Positions 56,655 through 62,366 are shown, numbered from the stretch's first letter. The stretch: 64,000 bases of DNA from an uncultured delta proteobacterium (GCA_963699755.1 CAVOVB010000001.1:896001-960000), one strand, 5' to 3'. Notes: generated by a model from the sequence alone, not told the origin. Numbers and translations: made by a program.

Positions 56655-58430
56655 TTAGGGTAGGGGCTCGGCAACGAAGTAGGAGCCTAGGGGGATGAAC
56701 ATCTCGTCATCGGTCGTGATGCCGCCGAGAAGCGGGCAGGCGTCGCAGACCCCCTCAGGGCCACATACCGAATCGTCGCCTTCGCAGCGCTCGCCCTGCT
56801 TGTCGCCGCCGAGGCAGACGCGCTCCTCCGGCAGGCAGCCGCAATGGGCGAACGGAACGCCGCAGACCGGCGTGTTCGGCTTGGTCGAGTCGCGCTTCAC
56901 CTTAAGAGGATCGTCGGCGCCGTTGTCGTAGACCGCGCAGGCCTTGAGCGTGCGGTCCGCCTCGCCCGCGGAGGAGTAGTCGTTCGGCGGATCATAATAG
57001 GTGTAGAGCGGGTCGTCGTAGAGCCTGCTCTCGTAGTCGGCAGTCGTGTCGGGCGGGCGGCAAGCGCTCGTGCTCGCGCAGGGCTCGTTTGGCGGTAGCC
57101 AAATCCGGAAGAGCTCGCCGCGAATGTGCATGTGAGAGCTCAGCGAGAGGAGCTGTGCGTACTGCGGCAGGGTCCAGGTCATGCAGACCTCCTGCTTGGT
57201 GAAGGGCGCGACTGTGCCCATCGCGAAGATATTGTCCGCTTCGAAGATCTGCCTGCGAATGAACTGTCGCCCCGACTCGGGCACGAAGCTGAGGTTCACC
57301 CACTGCTCAATCGACGTCGCTTTCTTGGTGAGGTTGAAGCCGTGGCTGTTCCACGAGACGAAGCCCTTGAGTGGCAAGACCGAGTAGACACCCGGCGGAG
57401 GGAGGTCGATCGCAGTCGATTCCTGAGCTCCGCCAAGCTGAACTAGTGTGTCACTGTCGGAGGTGAGGAAGCCGGCGCCCACGCCGAAGTCGTCCGGCGC
57501 GAAGCGGTACCCGATGCAGGCCACCGAGGTGCGCACCGGGGTCGTGCACTGGCTCCGTGCGCCGCAGGCATCGGCCTCGGTCGGGTCGCAGGCTTCCCCC
57601 GCTTTGACGCCCCCTAGGCAGGTCCAGGGCCCCCAGTCGCCCCCATTGGGGTCGGACTCGGGCGTGTAAACGCCGATGATGCTGTGGTGTGACTGACCAT
57701 CCTGGGCGAGCTCGTTTCGGCCGAAGGCAAAGCACTTCCGACCTTCGCCGAACTGATCGCAGTCGACCTGGTACTCGGCCGGCACCTGGTCGGTGAAGTC
57801 GTAGTAGCTTGCAAAGCAGACCTCGTCTTCGGACTCGCCGTCGAGGTCCCAACCCCCCGCGTAGAACTGCACGCCTTCATCCTGGGCGGGTGCGGGGAGG
57901 GGATTGATCTTATTTGGCTCCGGTTCGAAGCTGCCGTCGCAACCGAGAAGCTCGAGCGTCCCTCCGACGATCGAATCGGCGGGTGCGCCCGCTCGAATCC
58001 AAATCCGGATCGCCTCGAGCTGGTCGGAGCTCAGCGGCTCCAGACCGATGGGCATTGCTTGGCCGAGAGCGCCTGGGTTGGTGCCTTCCGTTCCCGCCGC
58101 GAGCTTCTTGTAGAGAAGGCTCAGCTCCTCGTCGCCCGGAAGGACCCGCTCGATCGAGGGATCGATCTTGCTCGATCGCCGAACCAGGGCATCGAACGAC
58201 GCACCTGCGCGAAGGTCGAGTTCGCCGAGCATGTCTTTGCCGTGACAGGTGCTTGCGGTGCATCCCTGGGCTTCGAAGATGGTCGTTTGAATCGCGTCGT
58301 AGGTGCTCGCGTAATTGCAATCCTTGAGTGTGCTGCCCGAATTCGAGTCCGAGCTGCAAGCAGCCAAAACGAGCACCGATAGCGCTGAAACGAGAACCAA
58401 AGAAGAGCTGTGTTTCGGCATTGGTCTCAT
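56655..58430 (-). CDS. Paralogous lipoprotein: CX4CH cytochrome c domain plus PHM/DBH-like Cu monooxygenase
   Basis: Lipobox LAAC; GCTASTCHG...QAMP...IRIWIRAGA; SHHS, SHGF, SHMHI and DEMF motifs. Start is 58430 or 58421. Confidence 0.75.
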   Translation of the reverse strand: MRPMPKHSSSLVLVSALSVLVLAACSSDSNSGSTLKDCNYASTYDAIQTTIFEAQGCTASTCHGKDMLGELDLRAGASFDALVRRSSKIDPSIERVLPGDEELSLLYKKLAAGTEGTNPGALGQAMPIGLEPLSSDQLEAIRIWIRAGAPADSIVGGTLELLGCDGSFEPEPNKINPLPAPAQDEGVQFYAGGWDLDGESEDEVCFASYYDFTDQVPAEYQVDCDQFGEGRKCFAFGRNELAQDGQSHHSIIGVYTPESDPNGGDWGPWTCLGGVKAGEACDPTEADACGARSQCTTPVRTSVACIGYRFAPDDFGVGAGFLTSDSDTLVQLGGAQESTAIDLPPPGVYSVLPLKGFVSWNSHGFNLTKKATSIEQWVNLSFVPESGRQFIRRQIFEADNIFAMGTVAPFTKQEVCMTWTLPQYAQLLSLSSHMHIRGELFRIWLPPNEPCASTSACRPPDTTADYESRLYDDPLYTYYDPPNDYSSAGEADRTLKACAVYDNGADDPLKVKRDSTKPNTPVCGVPFAHCGCLPEERVCLGGDKQGERCEGDDSVCGPEGVCDACPLLGGITTDDEMFIPLGSYFVAEPLP

Positions 58431-58536
58431 CGTCCCGGCGGGTCTGGAGCTGAAATACAAAAGGTCAACTGATTCCGGTTCAATTGACGGAGAGCGGTGA
58501 TTGGCGCAAGCCTTGCGCCTCTCTGGAGAACCTCCG

Positions 58537-58983
58537 ATGCCGCTCGAAATCCTCTTCAAGACCGCCAACTACGCGATCATTCCGTTCTGGTTGCTGCTGA
58601 TCGTCGCCCCGCGCTGGTCCTGGACACAGCGATTGGTGTACGGGCCAGTCGCGCTTCTGCTGCTCTCGCCGATCTACGCGTACATGCTCTTTGGCTATGG
58701 ACCAGGGCCCGAAGGTGTGGAGTTCCGTTCGCTCTATGGCGTGATGCAAGGGTTTTCGGTGCCGCAGCTCGTGGTCGCGGGTTGGATTCACTATCTGATC
58801 TTCGATTTGTTCGTCGGCGCTTGGGAGACGCGGGATGCACAGCGGCGCGGGATCCCCCATCTCCTCGTGATCCCTTGTCTCATCGCGACCCTGCTGGTCG
58901 GGCCTCTGGGGCTTCTCCTCTACGTGCTCCTGCGCTTCTTCGCCAAGGGGGTCCTCGAGTACGACGAGGCGGGAACCCTTTGA
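58537..58983 (+). CDS. ABA4-like (DUF4281) membrane protein
   Basis: WLLLIVAPRW, GWIHYLIFDLFVG and GPLGLLLY motifs; GGAGA RBS. Confidence 0.85.
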   Translation: MPLEILFKTANYAIIPFWLLLIVAPRWSWTQRLVYGPVALLLLSPIYAYMLFGYGPGPEGVEFRSLYGVMQGFSVPQLVVAGWIHYLIFDLFVGAWETRDAQRRGIPHLLVIPCLIATLLVGPLGLLLYVLLRFFAKGVLEYDEAGTL

Positions 58984-59029
58984 GGCCCCGCGACGCCGGG
59001 CACCTGGGAGCAGGGTCACGGCGCGCAAT

Positions 59030-59384
59030 TAAGTGGGGCCAGCGCCATTACTGGCGCCGGCCCTCGTTGATCCGGACTCCCACCAAGGGGGGGAGCTCGC
59101 CTAAGGGCTAACTCGCCCGCACCTCCGGTGCGAGTCCGATTCTAGAATTGCTGTCCATATGCATATTCCTCCCCCGGCGATGCCGGCGCTCTTGGGTCTC
59201 TGAGCACCATGCCCAGACCACGCGGAGCGTTCCTTGGTGGTTAGACCCACGGATATCGAGGGCCGATTCACGGCAGCGAGTCTCCTTTCGGAGTTCGCAC
59301 CAGCGCGGGGCAATTCACCCAACCGCCGCCAGCGATGAGTCGCATCGCAAAAAGGAGAACCCTTCTTCGGGCAACGCCACTCAC
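59030..59384 (-). ncRNA. Candidate novel ~355-nt structured ncRNA
   Basis: 5'/3' closing stem, about 10 helices, two GNRA loops, crossing long-range helices and G-U pairs that form only on the minus strand; has its own promoter. Confidence 0.65.
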
Positions 59385-59390
59385 GCCATC

Positions 59391-59419
59391 AAGATAGTCC
59401 CTAGGCCCGATCGCGCCAA
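59391..59419 (-). promoter_or_regulatory. Sigma70-type promoter for the candidate ncRNA
   Basis: TTGGCG (59419-14), 17 bp, TATCTT (59396-91). The predicted start near 59384 coincides with the 5' arm of the closing stem. Confidence 0.6.
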
Positions 59420-59432
59420 GTCCAGAACTGAC

Positions 59433-60200
59433 TCAGAGAAGGAATTCGTCTTCCAGTTGCAAAATCTGAAGGTTACGCCCCGGGATCTGCGCAAGCTCTC
59501 GAAGCACCTTGGCCTCGAACGTGGGCTTGATGTGATAGAGCAAGATTGGAAGCGCATCGGTTTGGGTCAGCTTGTCGAGCTCGGACGAAAGCATCTCCGG
59601 AGTGAGATGCCGAGATGCCCAGGCGAGGTCGGTTTCGTCGTTTGGAAACGAGACTTCCATCATCAGCGCTTGAAGATCGTCGAGTGCGTTGATTCGTGTC
59701 CAAAGATCTTCGGTCGGTCCCGTGTCTCCACCGTAGACGATGCTCTTGCCGTTCTGACGAATGATGAACGCAGAGGTGTCGACGGTGTGGTTCACCAGGA
59801 CCGGCGTGACTTCGTAACCGTCGACAGCGGCGGCCTGGTTCGGCTGCACTTCGACGTAGCGTACCGTCGGTCCGCCCCTGGCATCGATCTGCGTGAAGTC
59901 CGGCCAGAGGATGTCATTGAAGAAGTGCCTTCGGAGCGCATGGATGGTTTCGGGGATTCCGACGATCTCGAGCGTCGAGCCACCTTGCTGGCATCGATTG
60001 TCCGCAAGCGTGGCGAGGTCACGAACGTGGTCCATGTGCGGGTGACTCACGAGGACCGAGCGAATGCGCGCCTGTTCGTCGAGCGAAAGAGAGCTCGTGA
60101 TGGCGCCGGCATCGATCGCCAGGCTGTCGCCTACCATGAAGCTGGAGGTTCGATGTTTGGGCGTTTCACCGCCATGACAGCCAAGCACTCGGAGCAGCAT
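59433..60200 (-). CDS. Class II 3',5'-cyclic nucleotide phosphodiesterase (metallo-beta-lactamase fold)
   Basis: VLGCHGG, IDAG, SHPHMDHV, FNDILWPDF, HTV, GDTGP, EVSFPN, HLTP and YHIKP motifs. Confidence 0.85.
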   Translation of the reverse strand: MLLRVLGCHGGETPKHRTSSFMVGDSLAIDAGAITSSLSLDEQARIRSVLVSHPHMDHVRDLATLADNRCQQGGSTLEIVGIPETIHALRRHFFNDILWPDFTQIDARGGPTVRYVEVQPNQAAAVDGYEVTPVLVNHTVDTSAFIIRQNGKSIVYGGDTGPTEDLWTRINALDDLQALMMEVSFPNDETDLAWASRHLTPEMLSSELDKLTQTDALPILLYHIKPTFEAKVLRELAQIPGRNLQILQLEDEFLL

Positions 60201-60826
60201 CAGGGTGCCCCTGAATTACGGATGAAATCGAGGAACTCGAGGAGCCGCTGGCCGTCTTTGATGAGGACGAATCCGCTCGACACCTCGACGACACCGACAC
60301 GAGTCAGTCGCCGAAGGGCTGCGCGCACTTCGCTCTCGTCGACGCCCAGGGCAAGCGCCAGATCCTTATCGGTCACATGAGGTGCAGCCGAGCTCGTGGC
60401 TCGTTCGAGGATTGCCTGAAGCTCGAGGATCACGCGCGCGGTCGTGTCGTCTTCGAGAAGAAGATCGATGAACCGATTCGCATTCTCGATGCGTTCAGCG
60501 AGCTGTCGAATCAATCGAATCGCAACCTCACCGTTCCCAGCGACCATCTCTTGAAGCTTGGTGGCCGGAATTTTCAAGAGCTCCGCCTCTTCGAGCACCT
60601 CGGCGGTTGCCGTGCGAGGACGACCGGTGACGACAGCCATCTCTCCGAAGAAATCCCCAGGGCCGAGCGTAGTGACGACGCGCTTTTTGCCGTGGGCCTC
60701 TTTGAGGACGCGGATCTTCCCGGCGCGAATGACGTACATCGAGCCACCCGGGTCGCCTTGACGGAAAACCGTCTTACCCCGGGGCACGCGAACACCAAAT
60801 CTGTCAGCCAAAGACTGAGCTGTCAT
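60200..60826 (-). CDS. Crp/Fnr-family cNMP-binding regulator
   Basis: VFRQGDPG, phosphate-binding cassette FFGEMA...PRTATA and C-terminal HTH. ATG 60826; stop overlaps the PDE start. Confidence 0.85.
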   Translation of the reverse strand: MTAQSLADRFGVRVPRGKTVFRQGDPGGSMYVIRAGKIRVLKEAHGKKRVVTTLGPGDFFGEMAVVTGRPRTATAEVLEEAELLKIPATKLQEMVAGNGEVAIRLIRQLAERIENANRFIDLLLEDDTTARVILELQAILERATSSAAPHVTDKDLALALGVDESEVRAALRRLTRVGVVEVSSGFVLIKDGQRLLEFLDFIRNSGAP

Positions 60827-60905
60827 ACCCCCACCGCATTCAATGTACTCCGCTGCGAAGTCGACCGCCAGATCGATAGGCCCTAATCTCGTGAAGGAGG
60901 GCTCG

Positions 60906-62366
60906 ATGACGCTCGACTGGCAGCAAGTCCAGGAATTCGCGCCGGAGTTGGGACTGGTGCTCGACTTCATCGTCGCGCTGGCAGCGTCCTCGCACGTCAT
61001 TCTCAACAAGAGCGACACCCGCTCGGCGACGGCATGGGTGGGACTGATTTGGCTGGTTCCGTTCGTCGGCTCGCTTCTCTACATCTTCCTCGGGATCAAC
61101 CGGATAGAGCGGCGCGCGAAGATCCTCAAGTCCGGCGTCACCGACTACAGCGTCCCGCTGGACGAGGCTCCACGTTCGCCGGCAGATTTGGATCGGGAGC
61201 TCGGAAGTAGCCGTGCGCGATTGATCGAGCTCGCCCGAGTGGTGGCCGGCGTCACGGGCCGACCCTTGCTGGTGGGCAACCACGTCGAACGCCTCGTCGA
61301 TGGCGATGAAGCATATCCAGCCATGATCGGTGCGGTTCGCGACGCGAAGGAATCGATCTCGCTCATGAGCTACATCTTCGAAGCCGAAGGCATCGGGGCC
61401 GTGCTGATCGATGCGCTCGCGGAGGCCATCGATCGCGGAGTCGAAGTCCGTGTCTTGGTGGACGACGTCGGCGTGCGTTACGCGCGCCCTCGAATCCATC
61501 GCGTCTTGAGGAAGCGAGGTATCCCGGTCGCGAACTTTCTGCCCGCATTGCTGCCTCGCTCCGTCACGCATTTCAACCTGCGGAACCACTGCAAGGTCCT
61601 GGTCGTGGACGGACGACTTGGGTTCACCGGTGGCATGAACATTCGTCAGGCCTCGGTCTTGGCCTCGAAGCCAGCCTATCCGACCAAGGACCTGCACTTC
61701 CGTGTCCTCGGTCCGGTCGTGGCGCAGCTCCAGGAGGCGTTTGCGCGCGATTGGGCATTCACGACGGGGGAGCGCTTGGCCGGGCGCCGCTGGTTTCCCG
61801 AGCTTCGACCGGCGGGAGAGACGCTAGCGCGTGCCATCGCCGACGGCCCAGATCGGGACCTCAACACGCTACATTGGGTGTTCCTCGCGGCGATTGGTGC
61901 AGCGCGGCGCTCGATCCGAATCATGACGCCGTACTTCTTGCCGGACCAGGTTCTGATCAAGGCGCTTCACCTCGCCGCCCAACGCGGAGTCGAGGTCGAC
62001 ATCATCGTGCCGGAGGTCGGAAACCTCCCGGTCGTGCGTTGGGCAATGTGGGGCCAGTACCGTCAGGTACTCGATGATGGAGTTCGACTCTGGCTCACGC
62101 CGCCGCCCTTCGATCATTCGAAGCTGTTCGTCGTCGATGGCTACTGGTCGTCGATCGGCTCGGCAAACTGGGACCCACGCAGCTTGCGCTTGAGCTTCGA
62201 GCTCAACTTGGAGTGCTACGACGAGGAGCTCGGGGCGAGTCTCGAAGATCACGTCCGAAACCGCCTGCTGGACGCACGGCTGCTGACGGTGGAAGAGCTC
62301 GACGGCCGTTCGCTTTTTCTGAGGCTTCGAGACGGGACCGCGCGGCTCTGGAAACCTTATCTCTGA
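60906..62366 (+). CDS. cls: Cardiolipin synthase (PLD family)
   Basis: PLDc_N TM region; HCKVLVVDG and HSKLFVVDG HKD motifs; AAGGAGG RBS. Confidence 0.92.
   Translation: MTLDWQQVQEFAPELGLVLDFIVALAASSHVILNKSDTRSATAWVGLIWLVPFVGSLLYIFLGINRIERRAKILKSGVTDYSVPLDEAPRSPADLDRELGSSRARLIELARVVAGVTGRPLLVGNHVERLVDGDEAYPAMIGAVRDAKESISLMSYIFEAEGIGAVLIDALAEAIDRGVEVRVLVDDVGVRYARPRIHRVLRKRGIPVANFLPALLPRSVTHFNLRNHCKVLVVDGRLGFTGGMNIRQASVLASKPAYPTKDLHFRVLGPVVAQLQEAFARDWAFTTGERLAGRRWFPELRPAGETLARAIADGPDRDLNTLHWVFLAAIGAARRSIRIMTPYFLPDQVLIKALHLAAQRGVEVDIIVPEVGNLPVVRWAMWGQYRQVLDDGVRLWLTPPPFDHSKLFVVDGYWSSIGSANWDPRSLRLSFELNLECYDEELGASLEDHVRNRLLDARLLTVEELDGRSLFLRLRDGTARLWKPYL

Follow-up and report, generated by a model that had tools for sequence, protein, structure and literature searches.

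The locus and its transcription unit

The window analysed here, a stretch of 64,000 nucleotides from an uncultured delta proteobacterium (GCA_963699755.1, CAVOVB010000001.1:896001-960000; source assembly listed as 100% complete with 9% contamination), harbours at 59030-59419 on the minus strand an element that a sequence-only reading had proposed to be a free-standing, structured non-coding RNA (ncRNA); the sequence, hexamers and hairpins that it quoted were confirmed at these coordinates. The element is interpreted here, with a probability of roughly 0.6, as an independently transcribed, structured small mRNA of ~355 nt and a candidate dual-function RNA. Upstream of it lies a gene for a class-II cyclic AMP (cAMP) phosphodiesterase (59433-60200, minus strand), which follows a gene for a cyclic-nucleotide (cNMP)-binding Crp-like regulator (60200-61018). 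These two genes abut, apparently sharing one base (59433-61018, minus strand), and an operon of the two just upstream of the RNA is therefore suggested. On the downstream side, the element's nearest neighbour is an ABA4-like gene in convergent orientation (58501-58983, plus strand), consistent with the earlier view that the element is a free-standing transcription unit and, in the genus, not a 5′ leader. The transcript and its signals are as follows.

59030-59384, minus strand: whole transcript, ~355 nt, its ends inferred from conservation boundaries; fold z-score −5.69; RNA-library contigs fall inside it
59414-59419, minus strand: −35-like hexamer TTGGCG; CTTGGC is invariant in 30 genus sequences, and the 17-nt spacer is variable
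59391-59396, minus strand: −10-like hexamer TATCTT; TATCTT or TATGTT is kept within the genus
59036-59063, minus strand: intrinsic terminator hairpin with an 11-bp GC stem and a 6-nt loop; compensatory changes at 402/430, 403/429, 410/422 and 412/420

In the genus alignment, the conserved block begins at G59384, which is 7 nt downstream of the −10 hexamer, and ends with the 3′ hairpin near 59036. The promoter TTGGCG-17-TATCTT named by the earlier reading is present (59419-59414 and 59396-59391), its hexamers being kept and its spacer varying across the genus. Pairs of the form TTGGnn-17-TAnnnT were also recognized by eye upstream of distant homologues, and a GC hairpin followed by a U run was found in 34 of 36 diverse homologues. 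Judged by these sequence features, the element is an independent transcription unit with its own promoter hexamers and intrinsic terminator. A simple consensus scan called neither a promoter nor a terminator at the element, because the promoter agrees with only 8 of 12 consensus positions and the window copy of the terminator has no U run. The U run is lost in the source genome and its closest relatives (L002-L007), where the sequence at window 59030-59036 reads CCACUUAA or CCAUCUAA, so termination may be less efficient there; more distant genus members carry UUUUUCA at the same place after the terminator hairpin. At locus L115, in a metagenome-assembled genome of Polyangiaceae, a short tandem-repeat array with units of ~8-9 nt (GAGCGGTGA/GAGCTTTGA type) lies ~10-100 nt downstream of the terminator.

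Part of this sequence was present in 20 public sequencing runs, eight of which are metatranscriptomes from at least five studies, and contigs lie on the element in four RNA runs of four studies (for example, contigs of 315 nt at 59056-59369 and of 299 nt at 59014-59312). These RNA runs are assemblies, which show that the sequence is present in RNA libraries and say nothing on ends, strand or level. In run X20 the depth was 74-195 inside the element versus 0-10 outside, although such depths, and the contig-free parts of 58400-60000, cannot rank expression.

Homologues were sought in myxobacterial genomes by BLAST and nhmmer, and conserved ones were found. BLAST located the element in 33 of the 36 other genus genomes, as well as in a single genome from a different family. 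A pattern scan of a species-level genome collection, with a pattern that was too loose, matched at least 120 stretches; among the 80 loci fetched (L043-L122), 28 were recognized as true homologues by an nhmmer profile, the remainder being chance pattern matches. By title, the records of these 28 are Myxococcota, Polyangiales, Sandaracinaceae, Myxococcales or delta proteobacterium. For order- and phylum-wide tallies a covariance model of the RNA core (R1) was used. Of 151 genomes sampled from the order, R1 matched 95 (69 of the 113 high-quality genomes; 41 of 76 genera), nearly always once per genome; this tally counts one weak match, in genome G150, on which nothing rests. In a phylum sample, R1 matched 14 of 151 genomes, and outside the order only two of ~126, both in one genus. 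One out-of-order homologue showed the full architecture, with promoter-like hexamers, junction motif, Shine-Dalgarno sequence, a 12-codon frame (MSEACHLGGGRR), a CCUCC run and a terminator. A dispersed repeat, such as a miniature inverted-repeat transposable element or a repetitive extragenic palindrome, which the earlier reading had named as an alternative, was ruled out: the element has one match in its own genome and nearly always one per genome elsewhere, and a single-copy sequence is therefore no dispersed repeat.

A conserved frame within a covarying fold

The RNA harbours a micro-open reading frame (micro-ORF) behind a Shine-Dalgarno sequence, and both have pairing partners in the 3′-untranslated region (3′ UTR).

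59168-59175, minus strand: Shine-Dalgarno sequence GGGGGAGG; five Watson-Crick pairs, eight with G-U, to the 16S tail of the same genome; 9 nt ahead of the AUG
59108-59158, minus strand: micro-ORF of 16 codons plus UAG, peptide MDSNSRIGLAPEVRAS; conserved frame, stop UAG at 59110-59108
59122-59137, minus strand: ORF segment (codons 8-13) with an internal GGAGGUG, pairing with the 3′ UTR; RNAalifold helix, columns 325-340 with 377-391
59074-59095, minus strand: 3′ UTR strand, made of a pyrimidine anti-Shine-Dalgarno run (59095-59087) and then an ORF-pairing purine strand (59088-59074); supported by duplex permutation tests
59105-59118, minus strand: small hairpin GGGC-GAGUUA-GCCC, whose 3′ side bears the stop codon; columns 344-347 with 354-357, standard pairs in 27 of 27

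The motif GGGAGG stands directly after a GC hairpin (59186-59174), with the AUG (59158) nine bases on; the 16S rRNA of this genome ends in GGAUCACCUCCUUUCU. A comparable Shine-Dalgarno sequence lies 6-11 nt ahead of the start in 34 of 36 homologues. Another in-frame AUG, at 59164, is unconserved. The frame was intact in all 37 distinct genus-level and pattern-derived sequences, and among diverse homologues it was found in 36 of 39 by script and in the remaining three by eye. In 31 of 36 homologues, GGAG is followed at a distance of 3-15 nt by an ATG that opens a frame of 12-24 codons, versus 1.5 expected from dinucleotide shuffles of the same sequences. Frame length was 13-17 codons in 31 of the 36, 21-25 in four (three with GUG starts and one a script miscall) and 41 in one. 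In a 31-sequence core alignment, gaps inside the frame span only three or six columns, and the upstream part has gaps of many lengths. Moreover, the stop is fixed in position and varies in codon (16 UAG, 12 UGA and 8 UAA), serine, which is usually the final residue, is encoded by AGU, AGC, UCC or UCA, and the peptide consensus is roughly M-[DHNQ]-[SC]-T-x(3-5)-G-L-S-x-E-V-x-x-S.

The proposal of a purely non-coding RNA was thus not upheld, because a strong Shine-Dalgarno sequence, an AUG and a 16-codon frame are conserved family-wide with coding-type indels and variable stops. Judging from this conservation, the micro-ORF is probably translated. A type I toxin mRNA was considered and rejected: the peptides of the window copy and of its homologues are hydrophilic, and the gene is single-copy and kept order-wide, which would not be expected of a toxin-antitoxin locus. 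Two long ORFs, of 73 aa (59101-59322, minus strand) and 410 aa (59148-60380, plus strand), overlap the RNA and the antisense of the phosphodiesterase gene; they have no Pfam match and look like GC-rich artefacts.

Pairing between the frame and the 3′ UTR was assessed by exchanging partners among 36 homologues. Cognate ORF/3′ UTR duplexes averaged −32.2 kcal/mol versus −26.0 kcal/mol for non-cognate ones, with none of 5,000 permutations as good. Cognate Shine-Dalgarno/3′ UTR duplexes averaged −20.2 versus −18.9 kcal/mol, with one or two of 5,000 permutations as good. CCUCC-type runs adjoin the terminator in the 3′ UTR of most homologues, and a GGAGGU(G) run of 5-8 nt lies inside the ORF in 31 of 36; where this run is of the GGAGG type, its end falls 7-12 nt ahead of the stop codon. 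The two long pairings cross, so that they form either a pseudoknot or alternatives to one another. Hairpins equivalent to that at 59105-59118 were seen by eye over the stop codon in other families. In the same permutation tests no cognate signal was found between the 3′ UTR and a C-rich box that precedes the core (1,606 of 5,000 permutations as good), nor for the P2 loop with the 3′ UTR, the 5′ half of the ORF with the 3′ UTR, or the Shine-Dalgarno sequence with the 3′ half of the ORF.

The RNA as a whole is highly structured. The minus strand (354 nt) folds to −177.1 kcal/mol, versus −146.9 ± 5.3 kcal/mol in 100 dinucleotide shuffles (z = −5.69; none of 100 as good), clearly better than these controls; for the plus strand z is −3.91. 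The assignment to the minus strand made by the earlier reading holds. RNAalifold predicted 100 pairs from 27 genus sequences (alignment A1), 19 of them with changes on both sides. The domains, from the 5′ end, are as follows.

59334-59384, minus strand: 5′ hairpin domain; RNAalifold pairs in columns 1-68 of A1; some species have additional, inserted hairpins here
59272-59330, minus strand: four-way junction P1-P4; covariation in 23 diverse sequences
59330-59323 with 59279-59272, minus strand: P1 of the junction
59320-59317 with 59311-59308, minus strand: P2
59307-59304 with 59299-59296, minus strand: P3, with an NUGG tetraloop
59293-59290 with 59285-59282, minus strand: P4
59236-59271, minus strand: variable hairpin between junction and core; a local hairpin in RNAalifold
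59174-59229, minus strand: core, consisting of stem CGCUC/GAGCG around a hairpin and then hairpin CCGGC-AUC-GCCGG; compensatory changes at A1 columns 233/271, 234/270 and 239/267

The four-way junction is the best-supported domain of the RNA. Across the 23 diverse sequences 89.2% of its alignment cells are paired and 12 of 21 pairs are changed on both sides, with 55 cells of both-side change versus 20.5 ± 3.5 in shuffles (slid controls, 35-48%). As a conserved, covarying, aptamer-like domain with 12 of 21 compensatory pairs, it resembles the sensing part of a riboswitch. A covariance model of the junction (R2) matched only its own locus in the source genome. Of the 151 genomes in the phylum sample it matched 10, all of the same order and at the RNA's own locus wherever coordinates were comparable; the junction therefore does not look like a modular aptamer placed ahead of other genes, an idea that was accordingly set aside. 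Binding of the tRNA CCA end by the NUGG tetraloop was likewise dropped, because this loop varies (AUAG, AUGU, AUGC).

No block of the family is better conserved than the core, on which model R1 was built. The other domains are more restricted: the 5′ hairpin domain is specific to the genus and its close kin and absent in distant homologues, whose predicted start adjoins the junction, and the variable hairpin is lost as a unit in L024 and L026 and swapped for unrelated hairpins in other families.

The local hairpins of the sequence-only reading (CUCC-GAAA-GGAG, CCGGC-AUC-GCCGG, CUGGGCA/UGCUCAG and GCGCCA-GUAA-UGGCGC, the last of which belongs to the terminator) are kept in this consensus. Its global fold, in the light of the alignments, appears largely wrong, and the closing helix, the two long-range helices and the pseudoknot were rejected as constitutive structure. 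The proposed helix closing the 5′ and 3′ ends is paired in 69% of cells (27 sequences) with no pair changing on both sides, and its 3′ arm is the tail after the terminator. The long-range helix CGGCCCUCG/CGAGGGCCG is paired in 88% but competes with the covarying terminator stem. For the long-range helices with an arm in 59243-59265, a single local hairpin is the better explanation: RNAalifold pairs the 5′ arm of CGGCCCUCG/CGAGGGCCG with the 5′ arm of UGGGUCU/AGACCCA. The pseudoknot GAAUUGC/GCAAUUC is paired in 77% within the genus, and among 29 homologues it showed no cognate-specific complementarity (3,311 of 5,000 permutations as good).

How the RNA may work

These pairings are compatible with a tentative scheme, to which we would give less than even odds, in which the 3′ strand forms a gate that is reset by the ribosome and biased through the junction by a signal. 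In the off state, the 3′ strand would clamp the Shine-Dalgarno sequence together with the ORF; in the on state, it would pair only with the GGAGG segment inside the ORF, or fold on itself. A translating ribosome would reset the gate, and the four-way junction would serve as sensor for a ligand, a protein or a condition that biases it. The micro-ORF would be the only frame under the control of the junction. The output would be the 16-residue peptide, ribosome-driven refolding of the RNA, or both, and the effector may be the peptide, the binding of ribosomes, or the C-rich run through an action on other mRNAs. The unit might even be an autonomous sensor-effector gene, in which a riboswitch-like junction and a ribosome-reset Shine-Dalgarno toggle would dose a 16-residue regulatory peptide that might act on the Crp-like regulator and the cAMP phosphodiesterase where these are adjacent, by analogy with SpfP of Spot 42 and its action on CRP; we regard this extension as quite doubtful. 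To our knowledge, no stand-alone transcription unit with a structure-gated micropeptide as its sole product has been described.

Several points weigh against the small-mRNA interpretation and its gate. The RNA data consist of assembled contigs, which give no direct evidence on translation, transcript ends or strand, and the on/off behaviour is one that we infer. Codon third positions are as invariant within the genus as first and second positions, and therefore much of the peptide conservation may stem from RNA pairing. For the 28 pattern-derived loci, the S-P-E-V codons and the Shine-Dalgarno sequence were part of the search pattern, so that peptide conservation there is partly forced; homologues derived from the covariance model vary at both. 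The frame of L198 runs to 41 codons, and three homologues start with GUG and have 21-23 codons. The signal for pairing between Shine-Dalgarno and anti-Shine-Dalgarno is small (1.3 kcal/mol), and the homologues are related, so that permutation and shuffle counts overstate independence. A test for a local hairpin in the 3′ UTR, between its anti-Shine-Dalgarno and ORF-pairing segments, which overlap, gave 15 of 36 homologues. Finally, across 20 loci no informative gene association was found.

Among the alternatives, the one that survives best, though in our view improbable, is a trans-acting regulatory RNA, whose C-rich anti-Shine-Dalgarno run would bind the ribosome-binding sites of other mRNAs and whose micro-ORF and Shine-Dalgarno sequence would be an internal decoy or a second function; it overlaps with the interpretation as a small mRNA. 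It would fit the CCUCC-type run beside the terminator in the 3′ UTR of most homologues, the free-standing unit with its variable gene context, and a weak resemblance of the 3′ part of one homologue to CcsR1, a small RNA (sRNA) with a C-rich motif (21.8 bits, below the threshold of 65.3). The C-rich run, however, has conserved partners within the same molecule and, in the genus, sits in a stem and not in an exposed loop.

Distinctly less probable is a ribosome-docking small mRNA of the rreB/rreR type, which would bind the 30S subunit or ribosomes and whose peptide would be incidental. Two 16S-complementary sites are indeed present, the Shine-Dalgarno sequence and, inside the frame, the GGAGGU(G) with its fixed spacing to the stop codon. 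Moreover, rreB is likewise a conserved small mRNA that stands alone and has a tiny frame (PMC5711450). Yet a large extra structured domain is present, and the complementarity of 16-17 nt into the GTG that marks the rre type was not found: the longest Watson-Crick run is 4-7 nt in 36 homologues and 5 nt in the window, so that a giant Shine-Dalgarno sequence of this kind was rejected.

The gene neighbourhood bears on a further alternative, a cis-acting leader or attenuator in which sensor, leader peptide and terminator would control a downstream gene, and makes it very improbable. A YceI-like gene lies downstream on the same strand in three of 20 loci, of different families (L043, L183 and L185), and in L043 and G040 (L036/L183) it starts within a few tens of bases after the terminator, so terminator read-through may drive it in those lineages. 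Yet no common gene follows in the other 17 loci, and in the genus the downstream gene is convergent while the RNA is kept in 33 of 36 genomes. Neighbours differ across the 20 loci (YchF in five, a VWA-domain gene in four and DUF2064 in three), with cNMP-binding or class-II phosphodiesterase genes nearby in three, the window included. This pattern looks like decaying synteny and not like a functional operon, and the cis-leader is therefore unlikely as a general function.

Other observations on the neighbours were also made. The pairing of Crp-like regulator and phosphodiesterase, or part of it, recurs with DUF2064 in L043 and L213. The gene ychF, for a ribosome-associated ATPase, lies within ~1.5 kb of the RNA in L043, L183, L192, L213 and L214, in varying orientation. 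The out-of-order homologue L217 (G262) has, next to the RNA on its upstream side, a gene encoding the C-terminal domain of a copper type II monooxygenase.

A purely structural ncRNA, whose frame would be a by-product of RNA constraints, is hardly credible either: nucleotide conservation in the genus is very high at all codon positions and the frame overlaps a covarying helix, yet pairing leaves unexplained the multiple-of-three indels, the fixed stop position with its three stop codons, the AGY/UCN switches of serine, the conserved spacing between Shine-Dalgarno and AUG, and a frame in 31 of 36 homologues versus 1.5 expected.

Known RNA families and comparable systems

Rfam 15 (4,227 models) gave no match at gathering thresholds in the whole window, in line with the view of the sequence-only reading that the signatures of common families are lacking. 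At E ≤ 10 on 58900-59500, only a terminator-like stem (22.2 bits versus a threshold of 75) and two chance matches were returned, and nine distant homologues had no consistent Rfam match. The element is not RNase P RNA, for which the genome has its gene on contig 3 (300.5 bits, RF00010), with no match at the element. Nor is it tmRNA, which is matched by RF00023 on contig 8: the 5′/3′ pairing of the element is unconserved and its frame has a Shine-Dalgarno sequence and an AUG, and ARAGORN found no tRNA or tmRNA gene in the window. The 6S model RF00013 had no match anywhere in the genome, but it rang in only five of 14 control genomes, so a 6S RNA may still exist elsewhere in the genome. As an identity for the element, 6S RNA was rejected, given the lack of an RF00013 match and a multi-branched consensus versus the long rod-like helix with central bubble, ~180 nt, of 6S RNA.

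No description of the RNA was found in the literature searched, supplementary files and subscription journals being outside its scope, and the RNA-discovery papers that were checked made no mention of myxobacteria. On the conservation seen in its sequence, the RNA is best filed as a real, undescribed family of the conserved small-mRNA or dual-function kind, not as a pure ncRNA. If this is true, a large myxobacterial order has retained, in most of its members, a single-copy, expressed RNA gene missing from Rfam and from the literature searched. It would unite an elaborate, sensor-like fold with a micro-protein gene of 13-17 codons, a size that gene callers do not reach; the two are mostly studied separately. 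It would also offer a defined system in which to ask how RNA refolding and the translation of a tiny frame control each other. Large single-contig genomes are among the carriers, and if any of them is cultivated, the frame, the helices and the junction would be open to ordinary genetics and structure probing.

With tmRNA, the RNA shares its size (~350 nt), its high degree of structure and a short internal frame flanked by structure; tRNA-like ends and a resume codon without Shine-Dalgarno sequence or AUG belong to tmRNA and not to this RNA. In the C-rich sRNAs CcsR/cuckoo, 6C and RsaE/RoxS, an anti-Shine-Dalgarno run lies in hairpin loops, often in several copies, and is unaccompanied by a Shine-Dalgarno sequence and ORF of their own. 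Here too a CCUCC-type run is found close to the terminator, and it is a candidate seed for pairing with other mRNAs; this RNA, however, has its own Shine-Dalgarno sequence and ORF, and its sole Rfam resemblance to that group is below threshold.

Leader-peptide attenuators, the mgtA leader with mgtL, and rnTrpL/peTrpL of Sinorhizobium consist of a sensor RNA and a frame of ~14-17 codons whose translation chooses between alternative pairings, and end at a terminator. The present RNA likewise combines a sensor-like domain, a tiny frame and a terminator. Those systems lead downstream genes, whereas no common downstream gene follows here and the listed peptides contain no run of regulatory codons.

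Among dual-function sRNAs such as SgrS/SgrT and RNAIII/hld, one short transcript serves as a structured RNA and also encodes a very small protein, as proposed here. A further case, Spot 42, encodes the 15-aa peptide SpfP, which is reported to act on CRP (PMC8916003), and the present RNA adjoins genes for a Crp-like regulator and a cAMP phosphodiesterase. It differs, however, in its far larger structured part; the cNMP-gene neighbourhood is found in some lineages only, and there is no homology.

The closest likeness in kind is to rreB and rreR of Alphaproteobacteria (Hahn et al. 2016, PMC5711450): rreB is a free-standing, conserved small mRNA of 165 nt with 14 codons, the frames of the pair, of 14-18 codons, are of unknown function and stand behind their own promoters, their hallmark is a complementarity of 16-17 nt to the 16S 3′ end that runs into the GTG start, and their regulation is thought to occur at the ribosome. 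The RNA described here likewise has its own promoter-like hexamers and a frame of 13-17 codons in 31 of 36 homologues; it differs in its length of ~355 nt, an ordinary though strong Shine-Dalgarno sequence of 5-7 Watson-Crick pairs, an AUG placed 6-11 nt after the Shine-Dalgarno sequence, a four-way junction and an internal anti-Shine-Dalgarno run, and it has no sequence similarity to them. If our interpretation holds, it would provide a well-supported case, beyond Alphaproteobacteria, of the poorly understood conserved small mRNAs that rreB exemplifies.

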